DNA from: an uncultured Candidatus Saccharibacteria bacterium
GTDB lineage: Bacteria; Patescibacteriota; Minisyncoccia; Phycocordibacterales; UBA9973
Length of the DNA stretch: 64,000 nt
NCBI GenBank assembly: GCA_964500465.1
Contig: CAZCNB010000004.1
Span: forward strand, 1,160 to 65,159
Direction of reading: 5' to 3'
Shown: in pieces, positions 1 to 28,277 of the stretch
Position numbering within the stretch: position 1 is the stretch's first letter
How the letters are laid out: each line of letters opens with the position of its first letter
Made by a program: the position numbers and the translations under genes
Notes under the pieces: model-generated
What the model was told of the DNA's origin: nothing
Database searches by the model: none
What the model saw: only the letters and a program-made list of their open reading frames with translations

Positions 1-2
1 TT

Positions 3-1388
3 ATTGGTAAAGCCCTTGAAGCTTGGACACCAAATAGTAGTGCACAAACTGTTATGGTTTATGTGGAACAAGGATTTTATGACGGACAAGGTATTGCTGA
101 ATTTGCTGGAATATCAACAGAGAGTGGAGTATTTGCTAGACAAGTATTACATAAATTCTTAACCGATGTACAAAATACTGATTCATCCTCTGATCTTTTG
201 GTAGACAGAATTGCGGTTGGAGTAGAACTTATAACACCTAAGGTTGTTGCTGATAAAGTCGAGCTCAATACTATAACTTCTGAAGGAGATAATGATATTA
301 GTTTGATTATTGGATCAAATGGTAAATTCACAATTGGAACAAATCAAACTTCACAAAGTCCGACTATAACTTTCGATTCACTCGGAAATGCTACGTTTGC
401 AGGTACTGTAACTGCAAAGGAAATCAATATAGATAACTTAGCTGGTATACAAGAAATTACTGAGCAAATAAACAATCTTGCTGAAGGGCAACAAGCATTT
501 ACTTTGACTGCGCAAGCCATGAATACTCTCACTCAAGCCCTTACTCTTGCACAATCTGACATCTTAAAATTACAGGGCGATTTAACAATAGCAAGTAATA
601 CAATAAACGGACTAAATGTTAGTATCTCTAACCTAGATAATAGATTAAAAGTTATTGAAAATTTCCTAACAAGAGACGCTGATGGTAATGTAAATGGAGT
701 TTCAATCAATATGCTTACTGTCACAGGTGATAGCGCATTCTCTGGTAAGGCACAATTTGATGGTTTATCATTCTTCTCAAATACAACTTCATTTAATGGA
801 GCTGTTACATTTGCTGATCAAACAGAATTTGCTCTACCACCTCTATACAACAAAGATAGCGCTGGGTATGCTCTGGTTAAACAAGGTGATAGGAGAGTAA
901 AGGTTGTGTTTACTAAGGAATATATAGCTACACCTGTTGTAAATACATCTGTTACTTTTGAAGCAGAAGACAATATTGATGATGCTTCAGCAAACACTTT
1001 ATTTAGTGAAGATGTAAGATTTATAATCGTAGGTAAAGATAACACTGGTTTTACTATATTGTTAAATAAACCAGCACCACGTGATATAAGGTTCTCTTGG
1101 AATGCTCTTTCTGTGAAAGACCCAACTGTATTTGAGAGTGTATTTGAAGGTTTAACAATTGAACCAACTCCAACACCACCTCCTACACCAAATGATAATT
1201 CTACTACGCCTATATCTTGTACATTGCCCCAAGTGTTAGATACCAACACTAATACATGTGTTGATCCTACAACTTCATCTGGGGACGGTTCTGGTAATAC
1301 AGATGGTGGATCACCAGATCAAAATACAAACCCAGATCCAACACCACAACCAGATCCAACACCACAACCAGATCCAACACAAGCCTAA
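3..1388 (+). CDS. 5'-truncated tail-fibre-like secreted protein. It has a coiled-coil segment, a C-terminal H-type-lectin-like domain and a Pro/Thr-rich PTPQPD x3 tail.
   Basis: The reading frame is open from position 3, so the gene probably begins upstream of the window. A heptad-like coiled-coil segment reads ITEQINNLAEGQQAFTLTAQAMNTLTQALTLAQSDILKLQ. The C-terminal region VKVVFTKEYIATPVVNTSVTF...GFTILLNKPAPRDIRFSWNALSV matches the H-type lectin pattern as I remember it (F..P.VV..S...GFTI....W.A). It ends in a PTPQPDPTPQPDPTPQPD repeat. Confidence 0.6.
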   Translation: MGKALEAWTPNSSAQTVMVYVEQGFYDGQGIAEFAGISTESGVFARQVLHKFLTDVQNTDSSSDLLVDRIAVGVELITPKVVADKVELNTITSEGDNDISLIIGSNGKFTIGTNQTSQSPTITFDSLGNATFAGTVTAKEINIDNLAGIQEITEQINNLAEGQQAFTLTAQAMNTLTQALTLAQSDILKLQGDLTIASNTINGLNVSISNLDNRLKVIENFLTRDADGNVNGVSINMLTVTGDSAFSGKAQFDGLSFFSNTTSFNGAVTFADQTEFALPPLYNKDSAGYALVKQGDRRVKVVFTKEYIATPVVNTSVTFEAEDNIDDASANTLFSEDVRFIIVGKDNTGFTILLNKPAPRDIRFSWNALSVKDPTVFESVFEGLTIEPTPTPPPTPNDNSTTPISCTLPQVLDTNTNTCVDPTTSSGDGSGNTDGGSPDQNTNPDPTPQPDPTPQPDPTQA

Positions 1389-1403
1389 TAATTATTTTTC
1401 GTT

Positions 1404-2354
1404 ATGAGTAGTATAGAAAAAAATTTAAATAAAAAAATCAGAAACCAGAAATCAATCATTTGGATACTTTCTATATTTTTAATTTTTGCTGGTTTTTTTT
1501 CTGTTAAATATTTTTTTAATGATCCATATAATGATTCAGAGTTTCCTATGCTTGATCCACTTCGTAAGTTTATTCCAGCGGAAAATTATATTACAAATAT
1601 AGAACCACTTCGACAATATCTTAGAGAATTGGGAGATAAATATCCAGATTCAATTACAATCTATTACGAAAATATAAATTCAGGCTCTAATATATCTATC
1701 AACAAAGATCTCAGATTATTCCCTGCGTCACTTTCAAAGTTGGTTCAAGCGATACTTATTGTAAAAAAGGTTGAGAACGGAATCTTATCGTTTGATCAAG
1801 AGTTAAAAGCAAAACCAGAAGACCTATCTTCAGGTTCAGGAACACTTTATGAGACTATAGGTAACGAATCAATAACAATTGATAATTTGTTGAAAGAGTT
1901 AATTATAAATTCTGATAATACTGCTCAAAACATTTTTAAGCACTACTTAGATTTTTCTGATTATGAAAAATTTCAGAATGCTACTGGTCTTCAAGATTTG
2001 TACAATAGTAATGGTTTTATATCTTCTAAAGAATATACTAGAATACTTCGTGTTCTATATACTTCAAACTTTTTGAAACCAGAGAATTCACAGAAGATTT
2101 TAGAGTATATGTCCAATTCTATTTTCAAAGATTATCTTTCTCAAGGTATACCAAAAGATATTAAATTTGCACACAAATACGGAGAAAATAAGGACTATGA
2201 TATTTTTGCTGACTCAGGCATTGTTTACATTCCTGGGAAACCATATATGATATCAGTCATTATTAAAGGCAAAGATTCTAGCCCAGAGACGAGAAAATGG
2301 GTGGTTGATTTAATGAAAAAGATATCAGAAATGGCTTATAACACAAGTAAATAA
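1404..2354 (+). CDS. Membrane-anchored serine hydrolase with a beta-lactamase class A / PBP-like fold
   Basis: There is an N-terminal TM helix (IIWILSIFLIFAGFFSV). An SxxK motif (PASLSKL) and an SDN motif (INSDNTAQN) are present. The third motif is degenerate (HKYG instead of K[T/S]G). Confidence 0.65.
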   Translation: MSSIEKNLNKKIRNQKSIIWILSIFLIFAGFFSVKYFFNDPYNDSEFPMLDPLRKFIPAENYITNIEPLRQYLRELGDKYPDSITIYYENINSGSNISINKDLRLFPASLSKLVQAILIVKKVENGILSFDQELKAKPEDLSSGSGTLYETIGNESITIDNLLKELIINSDNTAQNIFKHYLDFSDYEKFQNATGLQDLYNSNGFISSKEYTRILRVLYTSNFLKPENSQKILEYMSNSIFKDYLSQGIPKDIKFAHKYGENKDYDIFADSGIVYIPGKPYMISVIIKGKDSSPETRKWVVDLMKKISEMAYNTSK

Positions 2355-2528
2355 CACCAAATTACTGTTCAAAACTTAAAATATTTCAACTTAACTTAAC
2401 CATAGGTATTTATTCACAGGCTATACTATATATATTATTCTAAATATAGGTTATAATTACGAAGTATCTCTATCAATAACTTAAATACTCTAACTGGTCA
2501 TCTATCAAACCAGTAAAAGTAAAAGTCT

Positions 2529-5500
2529 GTGAAAAAAAATTTTACAAATTCAATAAGAATTTTTGCAATATTTTTCGTTGCGGTATTTTTATTTTCTTTT
2601 AATACAAAATTTACAGAAGCAGCAACAAGAACTTGGACTGGAACTACAAGTGGTTCATGGTCTGTAGCTTCCAACTGGGGAGGGACTGCTCCTGTTACTG
2701 GAGATGATCTAGTTTTTCCAAGTGGGGCATCAAACCTTTCAAATACTAATGACTTTATCGAAAATACAATTTTCAATTCTATAACTTTTTCTGGTAGCGG
2801 ATATACTATATCTGGGAATCCAATTATTTTAGGAGCTGGTCTTGCTGGAATAACGGACAGCGTGTCTTCAGGTGGTAATACTATTGCACTTGATATACGT
2901 CTTGATGTTACTCGAGATATAGTTGTTACTAATACAACTGAGACATTAACAATAAGTGGAAGAATTTCTGGTGTTGGGGGAATCAACAAAGAGGGAACTG
3001 GAAAACTTATTTTGTCTGGTGCCAATACTTTTGGTGGAATTTTAAAAATAAATGTTGGGGTAGTGAACGCACAAAATAATACTGCACTCGGAACAATTGC
3101 TGGTGGTACTGAAGTGGTTGGCAATGCTGCACTTGAGCTTCAAGGAAATATAAATATTAGTTATGAAGCTCTAGCGCTTAGAGGTTATGGTCCTTCAAGT
3201 GGTGGTGCTCTAAGAAATATTAGCGGTAATAATAATTTTTCTGGTTTGATTACAATGGTTGCTGGTGGTGCCGAGATATCATCTGATTCAGGAACACTAA
3301 CACTACTAGGCGGTAGCTCTGGAGGTTTCCCTTTAACTATAGATGGCTCAGGAAATATTACTTTCGACAAGACTCCAATCATTGCCGGTGCAACAGTCAC
3401 AAAAAATGGTGCTGGTACACTTAAATACAACTTTCCGAATACTTATACTGGATTAACAACAATTAATGCCGGGACACTTTTGTATGGGGTAGACAATGCA
3501 ATTCTTACAGGAGGTATAACAGTTACAGGAGGAACACTTGATATTGCAACTTATTCTGATATGGTTGGAACAGTTACACTTGGCACACTTGATCTTGCAA
3601 GTGGAACAATTACTGGAACTACTGGAATGTTGAGTAGCGCAACTTGGACACTATATAACGGTACTATTAGTGCAATTATTGCAGGAGACGGTGGAACTAT
3701 AACAAAAAGTACACCCGGGACTGTTGTTCTTACAAGACCAAATCAATTTACTGGTGCTGTTACTATTAGTACTGGTATTTTAGAAGTTCAGGATAGTAAT
3801 GCCTTAGGTCTTATTGATGGTATTACTACAGTTACAGCTGGTGCAACTTTACAAATCAATGGTAGTGGTCTCTCTATTCCTGAATACATAACTTTTTCTG
3901 GAACAGGTCATTTATATACAGGTGCAATTAGAAATAAAACAGGGAATAATACACTAACTGGATTACTAACTCTAGGTACGGCTGGGTTAATTGAATCAGA
4001 TTCTGGAACTACTCTAACTATTGATGGTAAGGGTCTTTCAGCTGCAAATATTGGTTTAGTTATAGGTGGTGCTGGGAATGTGACATTTACTTCAAATGCT
4101 CCTATTTATGGTTCTGGTGCTACTTTAACAAAAAATGATACTGGCACTCTAACTCTACAAGGGTTTAATAATTTTACTGGTTCTACTAACTTAAGTAGAG
4201 GGGAAATTGTCTTGAGTGGTTCAGGTGCTATACCAAACTCTGCTATCACTATTGGTAGCGGTGGTACTCTTACTATAGATAATTCTACAACATCTGCGCT
4301 AAATAGATTAAGTGAAACAGCAGCCCTCACAATGAATGGAGGAACATTCAAATTTATAGGTAGTAGCAGTGGAGATGTAGCTGAATCAACTGGCGCTCTG
4401 ACTCTGGCTTCTGGACATAATATTATTGATATTTCTCCTGGTAGTGGGGGGTCGACTACGATGACATTTTCTAGCTTATCGCGTACAGCAGGAGCAACCG
4501 CACTTTTTAGAGGAACAAATTTTGGGTCTAAGCCGGGGAGTAACGTTTCAACTTTAATGTTCACCTCAGCTCCTACTCTTATTGGTGGAGGAGGTGCAGC
4601 CAATTCTCCCACTATTAGTATTATTAAAGGTGTATTTGGTGACACCTCTCTCTCTGGAACTGGATCTGATATGGTTACTTACAATATTGGAAATACATAT
4701 GGTATCAGATTACTTAATAGCGTAGGCTTTACTGGAGAGTATTCAGGCGATCTTAATACTCCTAATGCTAATGTCAAACTCACTCTTGATCGAGCAGCAA
4801 CAACTACAAATACTAACTCAATAATTTTAGACGGTTTCAACATTACAAATCCAGGAGGTGCAACAACTCTACCTATTGCCTCAGCATCTCTTGCGGGTAA
4901 TATACTTATTGATTCTGCCACAAATATAGATGGTGCAAATACTACTTTAGGAATTACAACATTTGAGCTAAATATTTTAGCTTCATCAAACTCTACAATT
5001 TCTGCAGTTATCGGTACAGCTGTTGCCGGGTCACTTACTTTAAGTGGTACAGGAAATGTCACACTTAGTGGTGCAAGTGCTTATACTGGGACAACTTCGA
5101 TAAATAATGCGACTCTTACTGCAGGTGCGAACAACATTCTTTCAACTGGTGGGTTGACTGTTATTGGTGGAACTTATAATATTGGTAACTTTAGTGAAAG
5201 TTTAGGTGCTGTAATTTTACAAAATGGAACAATTACAGGAGGATCAGGTGTACTTACAAGTACCGCTTCTTATAGTTTTCGTGAAGGTACAGTAAGTGCC
5301 ATCATTGCAGGTGCTGTTGCTGTGACCCGTATTGCTACTAACACTGCTGCAGATAGCGTTGTTACTATGACACGTAACAATACTTATACTGGAGCTACTA
5401 CAATAACTAGTGGTATTTTACGTCTTGGAGGTGCGGGAGATGCAACCAATACACCACTTGGTACAACTGCAGGTAGTACTACTGTTGCCAACATTGCTGC

Positions 5501-8500
5501 TCTAGACTTAAATGGATTTACACTTGGTACTGCTGAAGCTATTTCAATAGCTGGACTTGGCTATGGACTTGGTTCAACTGTCGCAAATGGAAACAGTAAC
5601 CTGGGAGCCATAATGAATAGTTCTGCATCTGCTGTTTCTTACAGTGGTGCTATTACACTCACGGCTGCGGCACGCATAAATGCTGACTCTGGAAATTTAA
5701 CAATAAGTAGTGCCTTTTCAGGTGCGTTCGGTCTCACTATAGGAGGATTTAGCAATAGTACATTATCTGGTGTTATTGGTATAGGTACTGGAACTATAAC
5801 AAAAGATGGTATTGGAGTTCTTACTCTTTCAAATAGTAATACATACACAGGATCTACTACTATAAGTGCTGGTACTCTTAAACTTGGTGCAGCGGGCGGT
5901 GCAACTAATACCCCACTTGGTACAACTGCAGGCATTACTACAGTTTCAACTGGAGCTCGATTCGATTTAAATGGATTTACTCTTGGTGCCGCTGAACCTT
6001 TGACATTAAACGGTGTAGGATATGGTCTTGGAGATTTTGCAAGCGGTGCCCTTATAAATAGTTCTGGATCTACCGTCTCATACAGTGGTCTTATTACTCT
6101 TGGTTCGAGTGGCGTGCTCATTAAAGCTGACTCTGGAACAATAAATTTAACAAACACAGGAACTATATCAGGGGCAACATTTGCACTTACTTTAGGAGGT
6201 ACTGGCATCGGAACACTCTCTAGTATTATAGGAACAACAACTGGTACTGTTACAAAAATTGATACGGGTACTTGGACTCTATCTGCTGCAGCAAGTACAT
6301 ATACTGGTGCCACAACAATAAATAGAGGGACACTAAAACTTGGCGTTGCAGGGGGTGCTACAAACACACCTCTTGGTACAACTGGAGGAGGTACTTCTAT
6401 TTTATCTGGTGGTGTACTAGATTTGGCTGGATTTACCCTAGGTACTGCTGAAGCATTAACTATAAACGGAAGGGGAATTAATGATGGTGGAGCGTTGATT
6501 AACTCCGGAGGTGCTGCTACTTTTGCTGGAGCTATTACTCAAGCAACTGATTCTCGTATCACAAATTCTGGATCTGGACTCCTTACTCTAAGTGGAGCTA
6601 TTAGTGGTGTGTTTGCACTATATATAGGTGGTACTAATAACATTACAACTGCTGTCTTAGGTATGGGTACGGGAACACTTACAAAACAAGGATCAGGCAC
6701 AGTAACTGCAACTGGAACACACACTTATACTGGTGAAACAAGAATAGATGAGGGAACATTTGCATATGGAGCAACAACTACACTTGCTGCAACCAATCTT
6801 TTAATGAAAGGAGGAACATTTAATAGTGGCGCTAATGCCGATACTATTGGTACTGTTACCCTTGTTGGTGGAACGATTACAAACTCCGCTGCTCTTACTG
6901 GTACTGCATATACTTTTGAGAGTGGAACTATTAGTGGAATTCTTGCTGGTGCAGTTGCAGTGACAAAAAATACAAATAACACTGTAAACCTTACGGGAGT
7001 AAATACTATAAGTAGCACTATCACTATAAACGCTGGAACTCTTAGTTTAAGTGGGGCGGGTACTGCTACAGCGGTTACTGGCGTAACGGTAAACCTAGGA
7101 GGAACATTAACTCTTGATAACTCAACAACAAATAGTGGTGATCGATTAAGTGGTACAACAAACAACATTGTAATTACCATGAACGGTGGTAACCTCAACT
7201 TTATTGGTAATAGTGCAGCTGCAGCTTCTGAAACTTTAGGTAAACTTGCTCTTGCTTCAGGTCATAATGTTGTAACTGTAACTCCTGGTGCAGGAGGTTC
7301 TACAACTCTTACTTTTGGTAACAACCCTGGCTTTAACAGAACAGCCGGTGCAACAGTGCTTTTCCGTGGTACTAGTTTTGGAGCTACTCCTGCTGCAAAC
7401 GTCTCAACACTAATCTTTAGTACTGCACCAACACTTACTGGTGCAGCAGGTGCAGCTAATTCAACGACTATAAGTGTTATCAAAGGTGCTTTTGGAGATA
7501 GCTCGCTATCTGGTACAGGGTCTGATATGGTTACTTACAACGTAGGAAATACAAATGGTCTTAGACTTTTGAACGGTGCCGGTTTTGCTGGAGAGTATGC
7601 GACTGCGTTAACCACAAATACTAATGTAAAACTATCTGCAAATACTGTAGCAAGTACTGCAAGTATAAATTCACTTATTTTAAACGGCTTCGGTATAACA
7701 AATCCAGGAAGTGCTGCAACTCTTACTATAGGGTCTGCGTCACTTGCCGCAAATATATTAATGAATTCTTCAACTGATATTGCTGGAGCAAACACAACAG
7801 TTGCTTTTTCTACAGTTGAGCTTTCTGTTCTTGCAAATAACACATCGACAATATCTGCAGTACTTAATACTGCAGCATCTGGCCCTATGACTTTGAGTGG
7901 TTCAGGTAATGTTACTCTAAGCGCAGCTAATGCATACACTGGAACTACAACTATAAATAACGCTACTCTTACTTATGGCGTAAGTAACGCTATTTCAACT
8001 GGAGGTTTAACTATAGTTGGAGGCTTAGTAAACTTAAATGGTAACTCTGATACTGTTGGTACTATATCTATAAATGCAGGTAGAATTACTACTGGTGCAG
8101 GAACTCTTACAGGGAATGGAACTTTTTCAACTGTTGCAAATAATAATGTCGCTTCAACAATAACTGGAAACTTAGGACTTGGTGCTAATGCAACTTTTAC
8201 TATCAATGATGGGTTAATGGATAATGACGCTTTTATATCTGCTGTAATAAGTGGTGCATTTACTTTTGCAAAAGCTGGAGCTGGTGTTCTTGAATTATCT
8301 GGTAGTAATACATATACTGGTACAACAACAATCAGTGCAGGAATACTTCGATTAGGCGCAGCGGGAGATGCAACTAATACACCTCTTGGTACTACGGCTG
8401 GAAGCACAACTGTATCTGGTGCAAGTTCTGCTCTCGATCTTAATGGATTTACTCTAGGTACTTCTGAAGCTTTGACATTAAGTGGTGCGCTTGCAACTGG

Positions 8501-11500
8501 AGCACTTCAAAATACTTCAAGTACTGCTGTTGCATACAGCGGTTTAATAACCCTTGGTGCTGCAAGTACAATAATTTCAAACTATGGAGATGTAAATATA
8601 AGTAACACTGGAACTATTACTGGAGCAACATTTGGTCTTACTATCGGTGGTGCAGGCAACGGTACACTTTCAAGTATTTTAGGTACAACTTCTGGAACTT
8701 TAACTAAAAATGGTTTAGGTGTTTGGACTTTATCTGGATCAAGTACTTATACAGGCTTGACTACTATAAGTGCTGGTACTCTTAAACTTGGTGCAGCCGG
8801 TGGTGCAACTAATACTCCTCTTGGTACTACTGGTGGCGCTACATCTATAACAAGTGGTGCGATATTGGATCTTAATGGATTTACTCTAGGTACTTCTGAA
8901 GCTGTAACAATAAACGGTACTGGTATTGCAAACTACGGTGCTTTTATTAATAGTACAAACAATACAATCTCATATACAGGAGCTATTACTATGGGAGCAG
9001 CTTCACGTATCGTTAATTACGGGACAGGTGTTATGACTATATCTGGGAACATTTCAGGTAACTTTGCTCTTACAGTTGTAGCCGTTGGTAATTTCACACA
9101 AGCTACAAATAGTATTTGGTCAGGTACTGGTTCTCTTGTTAAAGAAGGTTCTGGAACTCTTATACTATCTGGGCAAAACACTATGACAGGAGCAATGACT
9201 GTAAGTACTGGTACTCTACAGTTAGGTGCTAATGGAGGAGTTACAAATACACCATTAGGTACTATTGCAGGGGGAGTAACGGTGTCTGCTGGGGCGGTAC
9301 TTGACCTTTCTACATTTACTGCCGGTGGCGCGTCTACTTGGGAACCATTAACTCTTAACGGTAGCGGACTATTAAATGGAGGTGCACTTATTAGTAATTC
9401 TACAACAGGTAGTAGTTTTGCAACTGTTGCTCAAACTAATGCTCGTGTTGTAAATAATGGTTCAGGCGCTTTAGTTATTACTGGTGCTGTAACTGGAGGT
9501 TCTACATTTTGGGTTGGGGGATCAGGTAACACTACAATTTCAGGAGCACTAAATACTGCAGGTTTACTTCTAACTAAATATGGTGCAGGAACTCTAACAT
9601 TAAGTAGTGCTACAAATATTAACACTTCACTTGTTCGTATCAATGCTGGAACTCTTGCTTATGGTGTTGCTGATGCACTTTCTACTCCACCAGTTACTGT
9701 TGCAGGCGGAACTCTCAACTTAAATGGATTTAATGAAACAAATCTCGGAGCCCTTACTCTTATTGATGGATCTGTTGTTAATACTGGGGCTGCAGCAACC
9801 CTAACTTCTACTGCTACTTATACACTAGAAAAAGGGACAGTGAGTGCTGTGCTTGGAGGAACCGTCGTTGCAGTAATAGCAAAAAATACAGCAGGTAAAG
9901 TTATCTTATCTGGTGACAATACATTTAGTGGTACCTCAGCTACTATAGCAGTGAATGCTGGTTATCTTAACCTACAACATAGTAATGCACTTGGTGCAGC
10001 TGCGAGTGCTAATACTACAACAATATCTGGTGGGGCAACGCTTGAACTTGAAAATAGCGTAACGATACCTAGTGTAAAAGCAATTACAGCAAATGGAACT
10101 GGTATGAGTAGAAGTGGCGCGATAAGAAGTGTGAGCGGTACTAATTCAATCGGTGCAAATGTTACCCTAGGTACTACTAATGTAAGAATAAATTCTGATT
10201 CGGGGACACTAACTATACCTACTATATCTGGAAATACTTTCAATCTTATTTTTGGTGGAGCAGGCAATACAACTGTAAGTGGTGCTATTAGTACTACAAC
10301 AGGTAGTCTAACTAAAGATGGAGCTGGAAGTCTTACTTTATCAGGGGTAAATACTTACACAGGAAGCACAACTGCAATAGCGGGTACTATCGTAGCCAAT
10401 AGTACTTCTTCTATAGGTGATGGAAGTAATGCAAACAATACTTTCATATTCAGAGGCGGGACACTTCAAGCTACTGGCACTATAACTTCAGCTTCAACTC
10501 GTGCATTTAGTCTTGCTACAAATGCTATCATTGATACAAACGGAAATAGCATAAGTATTGCTGGTACCGTTGGTTCAACAGGGGGTCTTACAGTAAATGG
10601 TGCAGGTACTCTCACTCTCACTGGGACAACTACTATCGGTGGTAATCTCACTATTGCGTCTGGTACATTTGTTGCACCAACTACCATGACTGTAAACGGA
10701 GATTTTAGTAATAGTGGTACATTTACACACAATAACGGTAGTTTGACTCTAACTCCAACCAACTCAACACTTACAACAAATATTTTAGGTAGTTCCAATA
10801 CAACATTTTATAATTTAATCAATACAACTCCAGGTTCAACAGTCAAACTTAAAGCTGGTAATACATATACGTTTGCAAACGTCCTAAATCTAACCGGAGT
10901 TGATGGTAATCCTATTTCAATAAATTCTGATACCCCTGATTCACAATGGCTAATGACACTATCAGGTTCAAGTTCAATTTCTTACTTGAAAGTTAAAGAT
11001 TCTGGATGTAGCGGAGGTAATAGTGTTGGAGCAAGTAGTAATATATACAATTACGGCAATAACGGTCCTTGCTGGTCTTTTGTTACTCCTACTCACGGAG
11101 GAGGAGGTGGTGGTTATATAGAAGGATCAGGTGCACTTGGTACTGTAGTTCTTACTGGAAATGTAGTTACTGGAGTTATTATTACCAATGGCGGAGGTGG
11201 ATATTCTACTCCACCAACGGTTAAATTCTGTGGCGGCGGTGGATCCGGAGCTCTAGGGACAGCAGTTTTAAGTAGTGGATCTGTTTCAAGTGTTACTATC
11301 GATAACGGTGGCTCCGGCTACAGTTCTTCAGTTACAGTTGTATTTGGCAGCAATTGTCCTACAACTGGCGGGGGCGGCGGAGGAACTGGAGGTAGTAGTA
11401 GTGCACGCGCAACTGCAGTAGTGTCTTCAAATGTTGTTCAGAGTGTAACTATAGATTTTGGTGGTAGTGGTTACACATCTACTCCAACAGTTAAATTCTG

Positions 11501-11780
11501 TGGCGGCGGTGGATCCGGAGCTCTAGGTACAGCAGTTTTGACAGGGGATTCTGTTTCAAGTGTTACTGTTGATAACGGAGGTTCTAATTACACGAGTGTA
11601 CCTAGTGTAGTATTCAATAGTAATTGTCCTACAACTGGTGGAGGTGGAGGTGGAGGTGGAGATATAGGTTTCTTGTACGATAAAAAGAGAATGTTTGCAC
11701 TGCTTGATCAGTCTGGACTTATAAATATTAAAAGTTACTTCTCTAAAATTTTCACAAGTAAGTTTAATTACTTTAAATAA
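2529..11780 (+). CDS. Giant (3083 aa) secreted surface protein made of autotransporter-associated beta-strand (PATR-type) repeats. It is a probable adhesin.
   Basis: It has a GTG start and a signal peptide (IFAIFFVAVFLFSFNTKFTEA). Dozens of ~32-aa repeats of the type G.GTLTLSG.NTYTG.TTI..GTL.LG appear. There are six ~150-aa modules of the form LKLGAAGGATNTPLGTTAG...LDLNGFTLG. The protein is Gly/Thr/Ser-rich. No C-terminal beta-barrel is recognisable. Confidence 0.85.
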   Translation: MKKNFTNSIRIFAIFFVAVFLFSFNTKFTEAATRTWTGTTSGSWSVASNWGGTAPVTGDDLVFPSGASNLSNTNDFIENTIFNSITFSGSGYTISGNPIILGAGLAGITDSVSSGGNTIALDIRLDVTRDIVVTNTTETLTISGRISGVGGINKEGTGKLILSGANTFGGILKINVGVVNAQNNTALGTIAGGTEVVGNAALELQGNINISYEALALRGYGPSSGGALRNISGNNNFSGLITMVAGGAEISSDSGTLTLLGGSSGGFPLTIDGSGNITFDKTPIIAGATVTKNGAGTLKYNFPNTYTGLTTINAGTLLYGVDNAILTGGITVTGGTLDIATYSDMVGTVTLGTLDLASGTITGTTGMLSSATWTLYNGTISAIIAGDGGTITKSTPGTVVLTRPNQFTGAVTISTGILEVQDSNALGLIDGITTVTAGATLQINGSGLSIPEYITFSGTGHLYTGAIRNKTGNNTLTGLLTLGTAGLIESDSGTTLTIDGKGLSAANIGLVIGGAGNVTFTSNAPIYGSGATLTKNDTGTLTLQGFNNFTGSTNLSRGEIVLSGSGAIPNSAITIGSGGTLTIDNSTTSALNRLSETAALTMNGGTFKFIGSSSGDVAESTGALTLASGHNIIDISPGSGGSTTMTFSSLSRTAGATALFRGTNFGSKPGSNVSTLMFTSAPTLIGGGGAANSPTISIIKGVFGDTSLSGTGSDMVTYNIGNTYGIRLLNSVGFTGEYSGDLNTPNANVKLTLDRAATTTNTNSIILDGFNITNPGGATTLPIASASLAGNILIDSATNIDGANTTLGITTFELNILASSNSTISAVIGTAVAGSLTLSGTGNVTLSGASAYTGTTSINNATLTAGANNILSTGGLTVIGGTYNIGNFSESLGAVILQNGTITGGSGVLTSTASYSFREGTVSAIIAGAVAVTRIATNTAADSVVTMTRNNTYTGATTITSGILRLGGAGDATNTPLGTTAGSTTVANIAALDLNGFTLGTAEAISIAGLGYGLGSTVANGNSNLGAIMNSSASAVSYSGAITLTAAARINADSGNLTISSAFSGAFGLTIGGFSNSTLSGVIGIGTGTITKDGIGVLTLSNSNTYTGSTTISAGTLKLGAAGGATNTPLGTTAGITTVSTGARFDLNGFTLGAAEPLTLNGVGYGLGDFASGALINSSGSTVSYSGLITLGSSGVLIKADSGTINLTNTGTISGATFALTLGGTGIGTLSSIIGTTTGTVTKIDTGTWTLSAAASTYTGATTINRGTLKLGVAGGATNTPLGTTGGGTSILSGGVLDLAGFTLGTAEALTINGRGINDGGALINSGGAATFAGAITQATDSRITNSGSGLLTLSGAISGVFALYIGGTNNITTAVLGMGTGTLTKQGSGTVTATGTHTYTGETRIDEGTFAYGATTTLAATNLLMKGGTFNSGANADTIGTVTLVGGTITNSAALTGTAYTFESGTISGILAGAVAVTKNTNNTVNLTGVNTISSTITINAGTLSLSGAGTATAVTGVTVNLGGTLTLDNSTTNSGDRLSGTTNNIVITMNGGNLNFIGNSAAAASETLGKLALASGHNVVTVTPGAGGSTTLTFGNNPGFNRTAGATVLFRGTSFGATPAANVSTLIFSTAPTLTGAAGAANSTTISVIKGAFGDSSLSGTGSDMVTYNVGNTNGLRLLNGAGFAGEYATALTTNTNVKLSANTVASTASINSLILNGFGITNPGSAATLTIGSASLAANILMNSSTDIAGANTTVAFSTVELSVLANNTSTISAVLNTAASGPMTLSGSGNVTLSAANAYTGTTTINNATLTYGVSNAISTGGLTIVGGLVNLNGNSDTVGTISINAGRITTGAGTLTGNGTFSTVANNNVASTITGNLGLGANATFTINDGLMDNDAFISAVISGAFTFAKAGAGVLELSGSNTYTGTTTISAGILRLGAAGDATNTPLGTTAGSTTVSGASSALDLNGFTLGTSEALTLSGALATGALQNTSSTAVAYSGLITLGAASTIISNYGDVNISNTGTITGATFGLTIGGAGNGTLSSILGTTSGTLTKNGLGVWTLSGSSTYTGLTTISAGTLKLGAAGGATNTPLGTTGGATSITSGAILDLNGFTLGTSEAVTINGTGIANYGAFINSTNNTISYTGAITMGAASRIVNYGTGVMTISGNISGNFALTVVAVGNFTQATNSIWSGTGSLVKEGSGTLILSGQNTMTGAMTVSTGTLQLGANGGVTNTPLGTIAGGVTVSAGAVLDLSTFTAGGASTWEPLTLNGSGLLNGGALISNSTTGSSFATVAQTNARVVNNGSGALVITGAVTGGSTFWVGGSGNTTISGALNTAGLLLTKYGAGTLTLSSATNINTSLVRINAGTLAYGVADALSTPPVTVAGGTLNLNGFNETNLGALTLIDGSVVNTGAAATLTSTATYTLEKGTVSAVLGGTVVAVIAKNTAGKVILSGDNTFSGTSATIAVNAGYLNLQHSNALGAAASANTTTISGGATLELENSVTIPSVKAITANGTGMSRSGAIRSVSGTNSIGANVTLGTTNVRINSDSGTLTIPTISGNTFNLIFGGAGNTTVSGAISTTTGSLTKDGAGSLTLSGVNTYTGSTTAIAGTIVANSTSSIGDGSNANNTFIFRGGTLQATGTITSASTRAFSLATNAIIDTNGNSISIAGTVGSTGGLTVNGAGTLTLTGTTTIGGNLTIASGTFVAPTTMTVNGDFSNSGTFTHNNGSLTLTPTNSTLTTNILGSSNTTFYNLINTTPGSTVKLKAGNTYTFANVLNLTGVDGNPISINSDTPDSQWLMTLSGSSSISYLKVKDSGCSGGNSVGASSNIYNYGNNGPCWSFVTPTHGGGGGGYIEGSGALGTVVLTGNVVTGVIITNGGGGYSTPPTVKFCGGGGSGALGTAVLSSGSVSSVTIDNGGSGYSSSVTVVFGSNCPTTGGGGGGTGGSSSARATAVVSSNVVQSVTIDFGGSGYTSTPTVKFCGGGGSGALGTAVLTGDSVSSVTVDNGGSNYTSVPSVVFNSNCPTTGGGGGGGGDIGFLYDKKRMFALLDQSGLINIKSYFSKIFTSKFNYFK
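4441..10100 (+). repeat. Large internal duplication inside the giant gene (~2.8-kb unit). The two anchor segments are at 4441-4800 and 7263-7620, and the PATR modules between and after them recur.
   Basis: Translated segment GSGGSTTMTFSSLSRTAGATALFRGTNFGSKPGSNVSTLMFTSAPTLIGGGGAANSPTISIIKGVFGDTSLSGTGSDMVTYNIGNTYGIRLLN recurs as GAGGSTTLTFGNNPGFNRTAGATVLFRGTSFGATPAANVSTLIFSTAPTLTGAAGAANSTTISVIKGAFGDSSLSGTGSDMVTYNVGNTNGLRLLN about 940 aa downstream. Confidence 0.7.
11090..11670 (+). repeat. Four tandem ~45-aa Gly-rich repeats at the C-terminus of the giant protein. Exact nucleotide repeats underlie them.
   Basis: There are alternating units ...GALGTxVLxxxxVSSVTIDNGGSGYxSxPTVKFCGGGGSG and ...VVFxSNCPTTGGGGGG. 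The string gttaaattctgtggcggcggtggatccggagctctagg occurs twice (~11218 and ~11494). The string aattgtcctacaactggygg also occurs twice. Confidence 0.7.
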
Positions 11781-11820
11781 CCAAACGATTAATTTATTCT
11801 TGCCCCCGCTATTTCTATCG

Positions 11821-11849
11821 TTGCTCAAATTTTCCATTTAACTTATAAT
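11821..11849 (+). promoter_or_regulatory. Candidate sigma70-type promoter, TTGCTC-17-TATAAT. The ATG at 11857 lies 8 nt downstream of the -10, so the transcript would be leaderless.
   Basis: TTGCTC is at 11821-11826, a 17-nt spacer follows, and TATAAT is at 11844-11849. No Shine-Dalgarno motif sits between the -10 and the start codon. Confidence 0.4.
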
Positions 11850-11856
11850 ATCAAGT

Positions 11857-12366
11857 ATGTCTACTAACTTCAGGATTGATGAATCAAGCACATCTGATCA
11901 ATATGAATCCCAAGACCGTGTTTTTACAACAAGGATTGTAAAAAAAAGACCATTTATGACCAAACGAAAGTTTACAAATACCATCATGCTGATAGCTTTA
12001 TTAATAGCACTTTCTTTTAGTGGATATTTGTATTATAAGCTCAACAATCTACAAAAAAATACTAAAGAAAATGTCGATAAAGAATCAAAAGATTTACTTA
12101 GTAAGGTTGCACGGTTATATTTAATACCAACTGGTGAAGAACCAACTATAGCTACAGTTTCAGATCCAGTTAAATTAAAAGATCAATCTTTTTTTTCTAG
12201 TTCTCAAAAAGGTGACAAAGTTCTTATTTTTTCTGAAGCAGGAAAAGCTGTGCTATATAGACCAAGTATAGATAAGATTATAGAAGTTGCTCCAATAAAT
12301 AATTCTAAGAAAGATGCTAAAGTACCTGAAAAAACAACAGAACCAACTAAAGATAAGACATTTTAG
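11857..12366 (+). CDS. Small membrane-anchored hypothetical protein. The N-terminus is cytoplasmic, there is one TM helix, and the tail is extracytoplasmic.
   Basis: It is an ORF of 169 aa with a TM helix IMLIALLIALSFSGYLYY. No family could be assigned. It sits at the 5' edge of the surface-protein island. Confidence 0.5.
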   Translation: MSTNFRIDESSTSDQYESQDRVFTTRIVKKRPFMTKRKFTNTIMLIALLIALSFSGYLYYKLNNLQKNTKENVDKESKDLLSKVARLYLIPTGEEPTIATVSDPVKLKDQSFFSSSQKGDKVLIFSEAGKAVLYRPSIDKIIEVAPINNSKKDAKVPEKTTEPTKDKTF

Positions 12367-13393
12367 TCTAATTGCATCATTTGTTTTCTTCCTGTCTCTT
12401 CTTTATCCATTCTCACAAATTTTTGCAGCACTATCTTGTAATGTTACTACTCAGGCAGCTTGTACTGGCGGAAGTGTAATACTCTTGCGCATGTCTGGTT
12501 CTACAAACGCTCACGCTGAACTTCCAAGTCAATCAAATACAAACTATGACAACTATGTTATATGTTGTTCAAGTTCTTCATCTATTGGAAATTCATGCAG
12601 TGCGTTTAATAAACAAGTGTTTTTAAAACTATCCGGTGTAACCAATGGCACTGTTCAAGAAACAAGTGTTAATACTTATGGAACTGATGCATGTCTTTCT
12701 GATGCAGTAGGGAACGATACTATTACTGTAGGATATCAGAATTCAAATTGTACTGGATACGACACTACTCTTGCTTCAATTTCTTCTTCAGATAATGCTC
12801 ATATAGGAGACGGCAGCGCTTATACTAGAAAAGTTTGTGCAACTGTCATACCTCAAACTATTTCTTTTGATATAGATACTGCATCTGACTTTAGTAATGG
12901 AGAGTCAAGTGCTCCATATTCTGTTGATTTGGGGACAATAACTACATCTACTGTTAAACATTCAGACAGTTCAACAGTGCGCATGATTGTATTAGAAGGA
13001 GATACAAATGCAGCCGGTGGCATGGTAGTAACAGTTCGAAATGCAAATGGTACAAACGGTCTAGTGTCTACATCAACTCCAGCAGATAACATAAACAGTG
13101 CAACAGCAACAATGGCAAACGGTACAGAAAACTATGGACTATGTGTTGCAACAGCTGGACTTACTGGATTTTCTAGGTCAACTGGCTATAGTTCTGATTC
13201 GTGTTCGCTTGCTTCAGGCACTAATGGTGTCCAAGCTCTAAGTACAACTCCAACAAGTATTATCAATTCTGCTGGAGCTCCAATTACCGGGGGTCATGCT
13301 GAGGTTGTTGTAAATGGAGCAGTTAGTGCAACAACTGCGTCTCACAACGACTACGCGGACACTCTAACATTCATTGCTACAGGGACATTTTAA
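12314..13393 (+). CDS. Secreted surface protein, paralog A. It has a signal peptide, a Cys-rich N-terminal region and a shared C-terminal ~190-aa domain that looks WxL-like with Met in place of Trp.
   Basis: The signal peptide is KIRHFSLIASFVFFLSLLYPFSQIFAA. The C-terminal domain runs from ISFDIDT... through RMIVLEGDTNAAGGMVVTVRNANG... to the terminal motif YADTLTFIATGTF*. This domain is shared with the downstream gene. Its first 17 codons overlap the preceding ORF. Confidence 0.7.
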   Translation: MLKYLKKQQNQLKIRHFSLIASFVFFLSLLYPFSQIFAALSCNVTTQAACTGGSVILLRMSGSTNAHAELPSQSNTNYDNYVICCSSSSSIGNSCSAFNKQVFLKLSGVTNGTVQETSVNTYGTDACLSDAVGNDTITVGYQNSNCTGYDTTLASISSSDNAHIGDGSAYTRKVCATVIPQTISFDIDTASDFSNGESSAPYSVDLGTITTSTVKHSDSSTVRMIVLEGDTNAAGGMVVTVRNANGTNGLVSTSTPADNINSATATMANGTENYGLCVATAGLTGFSRSTGYSSDSCSLASGTNGVQALSTTPTSIINSAGAPITGGHAEVVVNGAVSATTASHNDYADTLTFIATGTF

Positions 13394-13502
13394 GTAAAGT
13401 TATCCACATATATAGACGTTTTTTTGGTTATTTGGATATTTTTATGATAAAATATACGTATAAAAAGTGGCATTATTATTATTAATTTACAAGAAGTTTG
13501 TT

Positions 13503-14702
13503 ATGAATATTATTAAAATTATAAAATCTGTTTCTTCTAAGTTTGCTACCAGTTTTCTTATCGTAGCTTTGGTTGTTGTAAGTACATTTGGACCACAGTT
13601 GGCAACAGCTGCGTCCTTTACAACATCAAAGGACACTACTACGCGTCTAAAGTTATCTACTACTGCGGACCATATAATTAACTTCACATTACCAACTGGA
13701 GTTACTTTTGATGTATCTGGTAACACTGACGTCCTACGCGTTGATTTTCCTTCTTCCTTTACTCAGGGTGGTACTTGGCAAACAGCTGATTTTACATTTA
13801 ACGACGGTACAGCAAGAACAGTGAATGCTGTTTCAGCAGGAGCTGGTACTATAGATGTTACTTGTACAGATGCTGCCAACAACGTTGGTGTTGCTATCGA
13901 TACGACTAACTTAGTATTTACAGTTAAACCTTGTGGAGCATCATTCACAGCTTCAGGTTCTGCAGCTACTGTGACATTCACAATATTTGGTACAACAACT
14001 ACAGGTACTGGAACCTTAACTAATCCTTCATCTGTTGCTGCAACTAATATAGACTTTGGTATGTGTGACGAAACAGCTTCATGTACTTCTTCATACACAA
14101 ACTCACATTCAAGTCAGATTGCATATGCGATAGCTGATGATGATCAAGTTAACGTCTCTGCGATTGTAGGTTCATCAATAAACTTCGATATAGATACTTC
14201 TGTTGCAGATGCTGAAACAAACACACCTTATACTGTTGCTCTCGGTACTGTTACAACCGCTGATACACGCATTTCAGGAAGTACTGACAGTGTGAACATG
14301 ATAATACTAGAAGGTGACACTACTGGTGCCGGTGGCATGGTAGTAACAGTTCGAAATGCAAACGGTACAAACGGTTTAGTATCTACATCAACTCCTGCAG
14401 ATAACATAAACAGTGCAACAGCAACAATGGCAAACGGTACAGAAAACTATGGACTATGTGTTGCAACAGCTGGACTTACTGGATTTTCAAGAGCTGGATC
14501 ATATAACTCAGGTACATGTGCGCTAAACACTCTCAGTGATGTGAAGGCTCTAAGTACAACAGATGCTAATATAATCAGCACCACAGGACCATTTACTGGA
14601 GGCCATGCTGAAGTTGTAGTAAGTGCTGCTATAAGTACTTCAACTGTTGCTCACAATGACTACGCCGACACACTTACCTTTATTGCTACAGGTACATTCT
14701 AA
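13503..14702 (+). CDS. Secreted surface protein, paralog B, carrying the same C-terminal domain
   Basis: The probable start is MNIIKIIKSVSSKFATSFLIVALVVVSTFGPQLATAA, which is a signal peptide. The C-terminal 190 aa are paralogous to 12314..13393 and include a near-identical 161-nt stretch. It ends in the identical motif HNDYADTLTFIATGTF*. Confidence 0.7.
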   Translation: MNIIKIIKSVSSKFATSFLIVALVVVSTFGPQLATAASFTTSKDTTTRLKLSTTADHIINFTLPTGVTFDVSGNTDVLRVDFPSSFTQGGTWQTADFTFNDGTARTVNAVSAGAGTIDVTCTDAANNVGVAIDTTNLVFTVKPCGASFTASGSAATVTFTIFGTTTTGTGTLTNPSSVAATNIDFGMCDETASCTSSYTNSHSSQIAYAIADDDQVNVSAIVGSSINFDIDTSVADAETNTPYTVALGTVTTADTRISGSTDSVNMIILEGDTTGAGGMVVTVRNANGTNGLVSTSTPADNINSATATMANGTENYGLCVATAGLTGFSRAGSYNSGTCALNTLSDVKALSTTDANIISTTGPFTGGHAEVVVSAAISTSTVAHNDYADTLTFIATGTF

Positions 14703-14721: not shown

Positions 14722-15753
14722 ATGCCCACTTTCTCTAACAAAAGAGTCGCAAATACTCTACTAATACTGGTTGCTATAGTGTGCTTTTCTTATGCACAAA
14801 ATGTTTCAGCACTAAGCATTTCTCCAGTAAGAGTTGAGGTAAGTGGTAATCCTGGTGAGACTATAGAAAAAGAGACAACCCTAATAAATGATAGTGATGC
14901 TTCAGAAGTAATATACTATTCTTCATATGCCAACTTTGAAGCATCTGGAGATACGGGTAATCCTTCTTTTGTAGAAGGTAATCATGACATAGCAACATGG
15001 ATGTTTGTTCCTGCTTCAATTAGCCTAAAACCTAAAGAGTCTAAAAAGATAAACTTAAAAATTGAAATTCCAAAAGATGCTGAACCAGGAGGTCACTTCG
15101 GTGCAGTGTTTTGGGGTACTAGTCCAAACAATCCAGGCTCAGGTGTTTCTATCGGTGCAAAAACTGGAGTCCTAGTCCTTCTTTCTGTAAATGGAGATGT
15201 AAAAGAGGGTGGAGGACTAGTTGATTTTGTTTTGAAAGATAAAAAAGTATTTTATAACACACTACCAGTATCTCTTGTATATAGATTTAGAAATGATGGA
15301 GGTGATCGTATAAAACCAGTAGGTAAAATTACTATGCATGATTTATTCTATATACCTGAGGATAAAATAAATGCGAATCCTACAAGTGGTAATATCCTCC
15401 CTAATAGTACTCGACGTTTTGAGGTTGATTGGGTTAAAAATCCAAGAGCTAAAGATTACGTAGAACCTAATGGACCTATAGGGAAATTTTTTGATAAGGC
15501 ACTTTACCAATGGAAAAACTATGCTTTTGGACCATATTTTGCAAAATTGGATCTTCTTTATGGTACAAATGCAACCCGTGTTTCTAAAACAGTTTTCTTC
15601 TTTGTATTTCCTTGGCAATTATTAATATGCCTAGCGGTCATCTTGTTTATTGTATTTTGGGGAGGAAGGAAACTACTTAGACGTTACAATAGATACATAA
15701 TACAAAAGGCTCGTCTTGGTATTAAAACACCAAACGATGCCGGTCATGAGTAA
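14722..15753 (+). CDS. Cell-surface protein with an N-terminal Ig-like beta domain and a C-terminal TM anchor. It resembles DUF916/DUF3324 (CscA-like) proteins of WxL clusters.
   Basis: It has a signal peptide. The segment SISPVRVEVSGNPGETIEKETTLINDSD...KESKKINLKIEIPKDAEPGGHFGAVFWG fits the DUF916-like pattern as I remember it. A C-terminal TM helix (FFFVFPWQLLICLAVILFIVFW) is followed by the basic tail GGRKLLRRYNRY. Confidence 0.55.
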   Translation: MPTFSNKRVANTLLILVAIVCFSYAQNVSALSISPVRVEVSGNPGETIEKETTLINDSDASEVIYYSSYANFEASGDTGNPSFVEGNHDIATWMFVPASISLKPKESKKINLKIEIPKDAEPGGHFGAVFWGTSPNNPGSGVSIGAKTGVLVLLSVNGDVKEGGGLVDFVLKDKKVFYNTLPVSLVYRFRNDGGDRIKPVGKITMHDLFYIPEDKINANPTSGNILPNSTRRFEVDWVKNPRAKDYVEPNGPIGKFFDKALYQWKNYAFGPYFAKLDLLYGTNATRVSKTVFFFVFPWQLLICLAVILFIVFWGGRKLLRRYNRYIIQKARLGIKTPNDAGHE

Positions 15754-16633
15754 TATAAAATCAATATTATCTTTTGCCCTTATTTTTTTAGTGGCTTCAG
15801 CTATACCTATTTATGTTTTTGCTATAGATTACTCTCTGCCTCCTGAAAATGTATCAGTTTCTGCTGTTGTTACTGGACCAATTATTGGTCCTATAGATGA
15901 TGGTGGTGGAGGTGGTGGAATGTTATATGGTCTTATATTTTCAGGTTGGGCTTATCCAGGAGCCACAGTGCATATAATGAAAGACGGTATTCCTAAGACA
16001 ACTACTTTAGCAAATAGTGAAGGTTATTTTAGTGTTACTCTTAGCGAATTATATAAATCAAATGTTTTATATACTTTATACGCTATAGATAAAGATAATA
16101 GACGATCTATATTACTAAACTATCCAATTGTAGTGAAAATAGGTTATTTTACTCAAATCTCTGGTATCCGTTTCCCACCAACCATATCTACTGATAAAAA
16201 TGAAGTAAAAGCAGGAGATTCAATAATTGTACGAGGTTATGCTTTACCAAATAAACTTCTTGATGTTGTAATACAGGGTATTAGCGGAAAAACTTTTTAT
16301 GTAACTAGTAATCCAGATGGAACTTATGAGTTACCCATATCACTTTTTGGATTTAGAAAAAATAATTACAACTTACACGTAAATTATAATTTGGATAAAA
16401 AAATAAGTAAGGTTATTCAATTTACAATAGGTGACGCTAATATTTTAAGTGTAGATTTGGTTAATAACTTACCAGGCGATTGTAATGCTGACCAAATTAT
16501 AAATATAGTAGATTTTTCTGTTGCAGCTTTTTGGTATGGTAAACCAAATCCACCACGTTGTATAGATACTAATAACGACAATACTATCAATCTTATCGAT
16601 TTTTCTATATTGGCATTTTACTGGACTGGATAA
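15746..16633 (+). CDS. Secreted protein with two CarboxypepD_reg/Cna-B-like beta-sandwich domains and a C-terminal dockerin-like double EF-hand module
   Basis: The start at 15746 overlaps the upstream stop. A signal peptide and a poly-Gly linker (DDGGGGGGM) are present. PGATVHIMKDGIPKTTTLANSEGYFSV and AGDSIIVRGYALPNK...SNPDGTYELPI are Cna-B-like. The C-terminus DCNADQIINIVDFSVAAFWYG...DTNNDNTINLIDFSILAFYWTG has two D-x-N-x-D-x3-N-x2-D loops, each followed by a hydrophobic helix, which is the dockerin signature. Confidence 0.65.
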   Translation: MSNIKSILSFALIFLVASAIPIYVFAIDYSLPPENVSVSAVVTGPIIGPIDDGGGGGGMLYGLIFSGWAYPGATVHIMKDGIPKTTTLANSEGYFSVTLSELYKSNVLYTLYAIDKDNRRSILLNYPIVVKIGYFTQISGIRFPPTISTDKNEVKAGDSIIVRGYALPNKLLDVVIQGISGKTFYVTSNPDGTYELPISLFGFRKNNYNLHVNYNLDKKISKVIQFTIGDANILSVDLVNNLPGDCNADQIINIVDFSVAAFWYGKPNPPRCIDTNNDNTINLIDFSILAFYWTG

Positions 16634-16640
16634 CTAGAAT

Positions 16641-28273: not shown

Positions 28274-28277
28274 TTAT

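Follow-up and report, generated by a model that had tools for sequence, protein, structure and literature searches.

A predicted secreted giant PATR repeat protein without a beta-barrel in a Minisyncoccia-class bacterium, and its conserved C-terminal cassette

How is a secreted protein of 3083 amino acids (aa), built of repeats known from autotransporter passengers, kept on its cell when it ends without a beta-barrel? The question is raised by a gene on a 64-kb stretch of DNA from an uncultured bacterium of the Patescibacteria (64,000 nucleotides (nt) of contig CAZCNB010000004.1; the whole stretch is called the window hereafter). Attachment to other cells is thought to be the way of life of most Patescibacteria, and how their large surface proteins are mounted is largely unknown. 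We find that the protein, referred to as the giant, is well supported by its sequence as a secreted PATR beta-helix protein lacking a barrel. What is new here, as far as sequence comparison can tell, is that the barrel or PEP-CTERM end of its relatives is replaced by an uncatalogued, modular and lineage-restricted C-terminal cassette. The best explanation of the whole, which we rate somewhat above an even chance, is that the giant is a Sec-exported PATR fibre and candidate adhesin that would be held on the cell non-covalently through this cassette.

An intact gene for a PATR repeat protein

The giant is composed of the following parts:

2529 to 11780, plus strand: giant gene, GTG start, 3083 aa
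2529 to 2621, plus strand: Sec-type signal peptide by sequence inspection, aa 1-31, cleavage predicted between TEA and A
2622 to 10682, plus strand: PATR-type beta-strand repeat region, aa 32-2718 (Pfam, TIGR02601 and a hidden Markov model (HMM) built here)
4203 to 5036, plus strand: first PATR-free block of ~280 aa, aa ~559-836, a gap in the PATR map
7062 to 7886, plus strand: second PATR-free block of ~280 aa, aa ~1512-1786, lying within a large internal duplication
10683 to 11084, plus strand: cap domain, aa 2719-2852, defined by conservation and a predicted local distance difference test score (pLDDT) of ~80
11085 to 11636, plus strand: poly-Gly hinges and four GGSGY repeats of ~45 aa, aa ~2853-3036 (DNA repeats, structural model, PHROGs)
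11637 to 11660, plus strand: Gly8 run directly before the tail (sequence, Tandem Repeats Finder)
11661 to 11777, plus strand: conserved 39-aa C-terminal tail DIGFLYDKKRMFALLDQSGLINIKSYFSKIFTSKFNYFK (alignments, tail HMM)

The giant open reading frame (ORF) is uninterrupted, and its 9252 nt make up 14.5 % of the window, as the original prediction, made from the letters of the DNA, had stated (a single 3083-aa ORF, 14 %). A long and internally repetitive ORF may be explained as a product of misassembly or as a pseudogene in decay. This explanation is effectively refuted. All 9252 nt are found with 0 mismatches on two metagenome contigs from other samples (labelled L001 and L002) that were made by different assemblers, the MEGAHIT-style contig ERZ27283032 and the SPAdes contig ERZ17987696 (coverage 13.9); the exact protein is also present in NCBI on a 68.8-kb contig, and the three assemblies are identical. 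The internal DNA repeats of at least 150 nt have diverged to 61-75 % identity and Tandem Repeats Finder reports a 25-nt GGTGGA run in the gene and nothing else, which leaves an assembler without repeats that it could collapse. Two independent metagenomes contain orthologues, one complete (L064, 3036 aa, 67 % identity) and one of more than 3264 aa (L075, 63 % identity). Both retain the hydrophobic N-terminal leader and are collinear with the giant, almost free of indels across ~2700 aa and devoid of internal stops. The GC content at third codon positions is 0.164, and the gene is native to an AT-rich genome. These comparisons indicate that the gene is intact and under constraint; with identical independent assemblies and uninterrupted orthologues, the repeat-collapse chimera or native frameshifts that could have undone the original prediction are not observed.

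Export is suggested by the N-terminus, for which a signal peptide had been proposed before. By inspection we read an n-region KKNFTNSIR, an h-region IFAIFFVAVFLFSF and then TEA followed by A, and this leader is the sole stretch with a Kyte-Doolittle hydropathy above 1.8 in the whole giant. By inspection and hydropathy the giant has the N-terminal Sec signal peptide that is one feature of type Va autotransporters. There is no lipobox in the giant and the first Cys is only at aa 2827, so it is not a lipoprotein. The N-terminal start of the giant (W..G....W....NW...P...D..F) is that of PATR proteins. In composition the giant is rich in Thr (17 %), Gly (16.6 %), Ser (10.9 %), Ala (10.1 %) and Asn (8.4 %), and all six Cys lie within the final 260 residues; DsbA-like genes in the window fit with extracellular disulfides.

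The Pfam family PATR (PF12951) matches the giant in 14 stretches with 158.2 bits (cut-off 27, E=4.3e-47), and TIGR02601, which the original prediction had named as a check, matches it in 15 stretches with 184.5 bits (cut-off 19.85). Both are far beyond chance and, judged by these profiles, the giant is a PATR repeat protein; a weak match to ShdA is also found among the NCBIfam/TIGR results. The claim that the protein consists almost entirely of PATR repeats stands for the family and falls for the extent. The HMM built here locates 17-18 PATR cores, each ~32 aa long and recurring every 100-150 aa, which make up roughly a fifth of the protein; no PATR is present in the last ~365 aa, and the two PATR-free blocks, 61 % identical to each other, interrupt the array. 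Both blocks belong to a large internal duplication (aa ~454-1350 versus ~1392-2167, 50-61 % identical).

To look at the fold of the modules, as had been advised, we predicted the structure of aa 1075-1525 with AlphaFold2 (AF2) and obtained an all-beta model (predicted template modelling score 0.82, pLDDT 74.5). A profile of eight modules of ~145 aa has a single significant sequence match in the PDB (5KE1, the beta-helical passenger of IcsA, E=3.7e-4), and the alignment runs through its PATR core; phmmer with the whole giant finds no match there. Taken together, these results make a beta-helix for the repeat region well supported but not proven.

The absence of a barrel at the end of the giant is confirmed. 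The last 384 aa have zero Pfam and NCBIfam matches even at E<=1, including those for the type Va autotransporter barrel (PF03797/TIGR01414), and no barrel is seen when the last 397 aa are modelled with AF2. The original prediction singled out this absence, which is no oddity among the relatives of the giant. Among the 119 nearest relatives of the N-terminal 450 aa, 29 end in PEP-CTERM (VPEP, a transmembrane (TM) helix and basic residues) and an autotransporter beta-domain is listed for none. PATR proteins without a barrel are thus common and not unusual in themselves. Relatives outside Patescibacteria include proteins of Planctomycetota, Verrucomicrobiota and Nitrospirota, largely diderm phyla. 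The nearest of these are PEP-CTERM PATR proteins of Planctomycetota, Verrucomicrobiota and other diderms (35-50 % identity over the N-terminal 450 aa), which are also barrel-less and have an alternative C-terminal signal at the equivalent position. These PEP-CTERM ends suggest that the PATR helix is a passenger module that is combined with different C-terminal anchors in each lineage.

The organism itself gives a reason for the missing barrel. The giant has its closest named relatives in 'Minisyncoccia bacterium', 'Candidatus Pacebacteria bacterium' and 'Candidatus Paceibacterota bacterium', in keeping with the small-genome bacterium that had been predicted, and NCBI already names the closest relatives in Minisyncoccia/Paceibacterota as PATR-repeat proteins. 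Minisyncoccia is a class in the phylum Minisyncoccota, kingdom Bacillati, and one syntenic locus is on a metagenome-assembled genome of a 'Patescibacteria group bacterium'. No Omp85/BamA, TolC, lipopolysaccharide or sortase genes are found in the 64-kb window. Patescibacteria have been proposed to have no outer membrane (PMC12102498), and the absent barrel is therefore expected rather than paradoxical. Compared with PATR/TIGR02601 passengers such as IcsA and ShdA, the giant has the same repeat core, a Sec signal and the same N-terminal start; it differs in having no beta-barrel translocator and, according to the literature, no outer membrane to hold one, in its length of at least three times that of typical passengers, and in a C-terminus that consists of cap, poly-Gly, GGSGY repeats and tail.

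The C-terminal cassette

The original prediction described the end of the giant as a Gly-rich repeat. The end is indeed Gly-rich, and it is more than repeats: it contains a cap, poly-Gly, GGSGY modules and a conserved tail. The cap carries the motifs ...FYNL...SQW...KVKDSGC...NNGPCWSF with one Cys pair (C2827 and C2848) and is kept in the proteins P0001-4 and P0016 and in the loci L003, L024 and L028. The GGSGY repeats form two pairs (DNA 11131-11394 versus 11401-11664, 71 % identity) with two Cys in each pair, and AF2, run on the last 397 aa with a 7-sequence alignment, models them as small beta units with pLDDT 77-86.

There is no Pfam or NCBIfam family for the ~45-aa GGSGY repeat. The repeats match internal segments of phage PHROGs, among them 701, 460, 19630 and 708, annotated as virion structural, head closure Hc2, baseplate wedge and tail fibre proteins (E=1e-7 to 3e-25), and many phage-type proteins are present among the homology-search matches. 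Two further proteins contain a GGSGY repeat, the flagellin-like P0095 and P0098, a tail sheath protein of phage type. From these matches GGSGY looks like a promiscuous decoration module common to phages and surface proteins of the Candidate Phyla Radiation. The GGSGY segments of the giant match the phage decoration repeats in sequence and differ from them in being Cys-containing pairs placed between a cellular, putatively beta-helical fibre and a C-terminal tail.

The tail belongs to a family of 32-40 aa, rich in aromatic residues, with the motif G-D-x-G-F/Y-L/I-F/Y in which G-D-x-G is invariant, and for which no curated Pfam/NCBIfam family exists. It is modular, being found both on PATR giants and on unrelated passengers: beyond the PATR giants it is carried by proteins in L084 (2062 aa) and L026 (404 aa) and by P0129 (221 aa, Cys-rich), P0010 and P0016. 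The 2062-aa protein has a DUF4189 domain and no PATR above the cut-off. On the same contig two different tail genes stand in tandem (1-3660 and 3715-9903) upstream of one small single-TM gene of the kind described below; one has GGSGY repeats and the other encodes the DUF4189 protein. A tail HMM run on 1841 ORFs from 754 kb of metagenome contigs separates 12 unique ORFs at E<=1e-7 from the next at E=0.67. A word-index search with the tail alone gave no matches, and a contig scan was dominated by poly-Gly patterns, with 2 loci of which one (L003) is usable.

Not all proteins of this type end in the tail. In L024 (1-1752), L028 (3-5627) and L030 (2-4774), related large proteins with cap and poly-Gly or Gly-rich ends occupy the same slot and stop without it (e.g. 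...GGGQSGGGDSE*), as if the tail had been lost or were optional.

Known C-terminal signals were looked for in the giant and not found. Its C-terminus has no PEP motif, no match to PF07589, no LPXTG motif and no TM helix. A PEP-CTERM signal consists of VPEP, a TM helix and an Arg/Lys cluster and is processed by exosortase; the tail of the giant shares neither the motif nor the helix, and no processing enzyme is known for it. Neither a dockerin (Pfam) nor a WxL domain (PF13731) is found in the giant, and there is no Pfam match to RTX repeats (HemolysinCabind), the N-terminus carrying a Sec-type signal instead. Three readings of the tail were rejected or left unsupported. The terminal residues are inconsistent across 14 tails, which rejects a C-terminal aromatic beta-signal like that of outer membrane proteins; an RTX-like reading of GGGGDIGFL is off the register of GGxGxDxUx and has no Pfam match; and an amphipathic helix or strand anchor is unsupported by the hydrophobic moment compared to shuffles.

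The gene downstream of the tail and its surface island

Downstream of the giant the window contains a series of predicted surface proteins:

11857 to 12366, plus strand: small single-TM protein, 169 aa, N-terminus inside, one TM helix and a conserved ectodomain of ~105 aa
12314 to 14702, plus strand: two paralogous secreted proteins with a shared C-terminal domain ending ...DYADTLTFIATGTF, called WxL-like in the original prediction
14722 to 15753, plus strand: secreted protein with a C-terminal TM anchor, WxLIP_PGBD sub-threshold
15716 to 18613, plus strand: conserved core of the island, made up of a dockerin-like protein and two cohesin-like ones that carry a TM anchor at the C-terminus

The small-TM protein has a short cytoplasmic N-terminus followed by the TM helix and the conserved ectodomain, whose profile has chance-level matches only in the PDB. 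In all 12 distinct loci a small-TM gene lies directly downstream of the tail gene or genes on the same strand. It is also the next gene in 5 of the 5 loci that were reached through the tail itself, and the gaps that could be read are 6-102 nt. No terminator-like hairpin is present between the giant and the small-TM gene. Across 1300-13600 of the window there are 0 intrinsic-terminator-like hairpins on either strand, compared to 6.0 +/- 2.7 expected from shuffles, and promoter-like sites are at chance level. In L087 (1168-1416) the small-TM gene downstream of the tail protein P0003 encodes just 82 aa and ends inside the conserved ectodomain, which may be due to truncation, frameshift or sequencing error.

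This gene is the first of an island. The order small-TM, dockerin-like, cohesin-like is found in roughly 45 independent metagenome loci, most of the ~80 with enough downstream sequence; sometimes the island also holds two proteins ending in ...TLTFIATGTF and a WxLIP-like anchored protein before the dockerin-like gene. We found no description of such a conserved Patescibacteria surface island in the literature searched. As judged from its gene order, the giant seems to be an accessory insert in this island.

The island proteins are assigned with varying support. In the window, the paralogues at 12314-13393 and 13467-14702 share a C-terminal domain of ~170 aa with an invariant end (...H.DY.DTLTF.AT.TF), and the pair is syntenic in L003, L005, L007 and L008. 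Six members of this family have no Pfam match at E<=1, WxL included, and no PDB relative; it is an uncharacterised family, and the WxL-like label given to these neighbours is not upheld. The nearest thing to it is a sub-threshold match of WxLIP_PGBD (PF06030, E=0.003, 18 bits versus a cut-off of 27.3) on the adjacent protein at 14722-15753, at a syntenic locus. Cohesin (PF00963) matches the protein at 17468-18613 with 26.3 bits (cut-off 24.1), and Dockerin_1 matches that at 15716-16633 sub-threshold only. The first cohesin-like protein (16641-17507) has a sub-threshold match to NF047446 (OmpL47-type beta-barrel, E=2e-6, 28 bits versus 40) at aa 200-253, directly before its C-terminal TM helix.

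The weak WxLIP_PGBD protein, the TM-anchored cohesin proteins and the dockerin-like protein make this neighbourhood resemble the csc/WxL and cohesin-dockerin scaffolds of Firmicutes, whose parts serve non-covalent surface assembly and are typical of monoderms. Unlike the clients of such scaffolds, the giant has neither dockerin nor WxL, and its link to them is gene order alone. The suggestion that the neighbouring cohesin takes part in retention is thus unsupported; the constant neighbour of the tail is the small-TM protein, which the original prediction did not mention.

Other genes of the window are of interest in their own right. A second large secreted protein is encoded at 54-1388, two genes upstream of the giant, with a Pro/Thr-rich low-complexity end and no Pfam match. 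It continues upstream and exceeds 1003 aa in L001 (2-3013), and in many loci of Patescibacteria a homologue precedes the small-TM gene, often as its immediate neighbour. Beyond the island are two tandem paralogous SBP_bac_3 solute-binding proteins (18633-19724 and 19768-20856), both with a TM helix followed by a charged, coiled-coil-like cytoplasmic tail, that is membrane-anchored and not lipoproteins. The flanking genes are chromosomal (gyrB, thrS, nusB, rnc, smc, rpoB, rpoC, dnaG, rpoD, rpsB, tsf, mreBC and uvrABC). Among them, a single 303-aa ORF (26662-27573) joins two domains in an unusual fusion, NusB (aa 7-136) and NUDIX hydrolase (aa 189-287), and the SMC_N-family protein at 28266-30521 has just 751 aa, compared to about 1100-1200 aa for a typical bacterial SMC. 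RpoB (1056 aa) and RpoC (1201 aa) are compact too.

How the giant may be held on the cell

We hypothesize that the bacterium, a Patescibacterium of the class Minisyncoccia/Paceibacteria, exports the giant by the Sec route as an extracellular beta-solenoid fibre. After cleavage of the signal peptide, ~2700 residues would fold into a long rigid beta-helix, for which we infer a length of roughly 50-65 nm because a standard beta-helix rises 0.48 nm per rung of ~20-25 residues. A disulfide-containing cap domain would close the helix, and flexible poly-Gly hinges would link it to the four small GGSGY beta-modules and the 39-aa tail. The PEP-CTERM ends of 29 of the 119 PATR relatives make the position of the cassette equivalent to that of an anchor; the cassette would be the cell-proximal end, in the place of a barrel or PEP-CTERM signal, and would hold the fibre on the envelope non-covalently. 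Its likeliest partner would be the small membrane-anchored protein encoded directly downstream, possibly helped by GGSGY modules that bind wall glycans. This would leave the N-terminal fibre pointing away from the cell, where it would serve as an adhesin in contacts with a host or particle.

Several observations weigh against this proposal. As to the fold, a Foldseek search of the aa 1075-1525 model against the PDB found nothing significant (best E 0.07), and fold searches overall gave no significant match; the non-significant ranking is headed by the autotransporter passengers Hbp, SepA, Hap, IgA1 protease, EspC, Ag43, IcsA and pertactin, and other beta-helices are also high in it. As to adhesion, conservation along the fibre is uniform in the comparison with L064 and L075, with no obviously variable binding tip. 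As to the tail, it has no hydrophobicity of TM grade (maximum 19-residue Kyte-Doolittle value (KD19) 0.52 in the giant and <=1.55 in the family), its amphipathicity is not significant compared to shuffles (mean z 0.5 as helix, -0.6 as strand), and its AF2 pLDDT is below 50. When all of 1.84 billion representatives were scanned with HMMER, using a narrow profile built from 7 tails, 4 proteins were found at E<=1e-3, and 3 of these had gone into the profile. Either the tail is rare, then, or its members diverge too much for a profile of this kind. As to the partner, the small-TM family is broader than the tail and mostly follows other genes (80 further loci), usually those for large proteins whose ends are rich in Pro, Glu and Thr, or else a beta-lactamase-like gene, which weakens the idea of a tail-specific partner. 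The locus of the closest relative (L007) has no giant in the slot.

The link between tail and small-TM gene is strict in one direction only, and it fits a recombination hot spot as well as a functional partnership. Since quite different genes precede the small-TM gene from locus to locus, the linkage may reflect such a hot spot and not physical partnership: the order would result from cassette exchange, with the small-TM gene as a 3' recombination anchor, and any retention would be by other means, such as GGSGY modules on wall glycans. We regard this explanation as possible but on the unlikely side. It gains from the empty slot in L007, from the scatter of tail-linked small-TM genes across the small-TM tree, which we count for our own proposal too, and from the nature of the GGSGY repeats as promiscuous decoration modules of phage virion proteins. 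It does not readily account for the fact that the tail is kept on unrelated passengers and with variable cassettes, which is more than orthology of a locus would give, and the glycan binding by GGSGY that it calls on is only a putative one. Alternatively the giant may be released as a free fibre, a matrix component or a polysaccharide-active protein, with the cassette serving in folding, capping or oligomerisation. Such a fate would agree with the absence of any recognised anchor at the C-terminus in Pfam/NCBIfam, with a tail that is neither a TM helix nor amphipathic, and with the related proteins of L024 and L028/L030 that stop straight after poly-Gly. We nevertheless consider it unlikely, since a conserved tail on unrelated passengers and its fixed place beside the gene of a membrane protein suggest a shared targeting role, and no catalytic domain is detected in Pfam or NCBIfam.

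Two further explanations would attach the tail directly. The C-terminal helix of E. coli PBP5/6 is an interfacial amphipathic anchor, and the tail could likewise insert in the outer leaflet of the cytoplasmic membrane; AF2 draws one helix over INIKSYFSKIFTSKFN, and tails are aromatic-rich and often net basic. This appears improbable given that the hydrophobic moment is no higher than that of shuffled tails (window z=-0.49, mean z=0.5) and that the pLDDT of the helix is below 50. It is also conceivable that the tail is a sorting signal cleaved near the junction of GG and D, so that the protein would be attached covalently by a putative sortase-, exosortase- or rhombosortase-like enzyme. The invariant G-D-x-G straight after poly-Gly and the position equivalent to PEP-CTERM in relatives are what one would expect of such a signal. 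To our knowledge all known CTERM/LPXTG signals share a TM helix plus a basic cluster, which the tail lacks; no candidate sorting enzyme is found in the window or the conserved neighbourhood, and the tail is very rare, so that we hold cleavage and covalent attachment to be improbable.

Non-covalent retention of the giant by its C-terminal cassette remains the reading that we favour. It can be extended to a more general and tentative hypothesis, which we think is rather doubtful as it stands: that poly-Gly and the G-D-x-G-F/Y-L-F/Y tail, with or without GGSGY, form a so far undescribed surface-display tag of Minisyncoccia that would dock diverse secreted passengers of 200 to >3000 aa onto the downstream small-TM protein or the adjacent cohesin-like scaffold.

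Very long proteins have been described in similar organisms, such as FhaB-domain proteins of 4939-6025 aa in Patescibacteria (PMC11809585) and PATR-rich giants in Omnitrophota (bioRxiv 10.64898/2026.06.07.730766), and giants of ultrasmall host-dependent bacteria are discussed as adhesion or predation factors (PMC11809585; bioRxiv 10.64898/2026.06.07.730766; bioRxiv 10.1101/2023.11.21.568195). Our giant is like those of Patescibacteria and Omnitrophota in being very long, built of repeats, predicted to be secreted and encoded by a reduced genome. It differs in that those reported belong to other domain families or phyla, and the cassette of cap, GGSGY and tail and its link to a small-TM gene are not described there.

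These results suggest that the PATR beta-helix is an anchor-independent building block, combined with barrels, with PEP-CTERM signals and now with the cassette seen here. In the tail and the adjoining small membrane protein there is now a definite candidate for an attachment module of this lineage, one that can be tested. If the display-tag hypothesis is true, giant fibres would be mounted on a single-membrane ultrasmall cell with neither sortase nor barrel. Should the tail not be a display tag, the gene would simply encode one more giant repeat protein of a known class, and a well-conserved one; should the tail be such a tag, it would provide a handle for the surface proteome of these uncultured bacteria.

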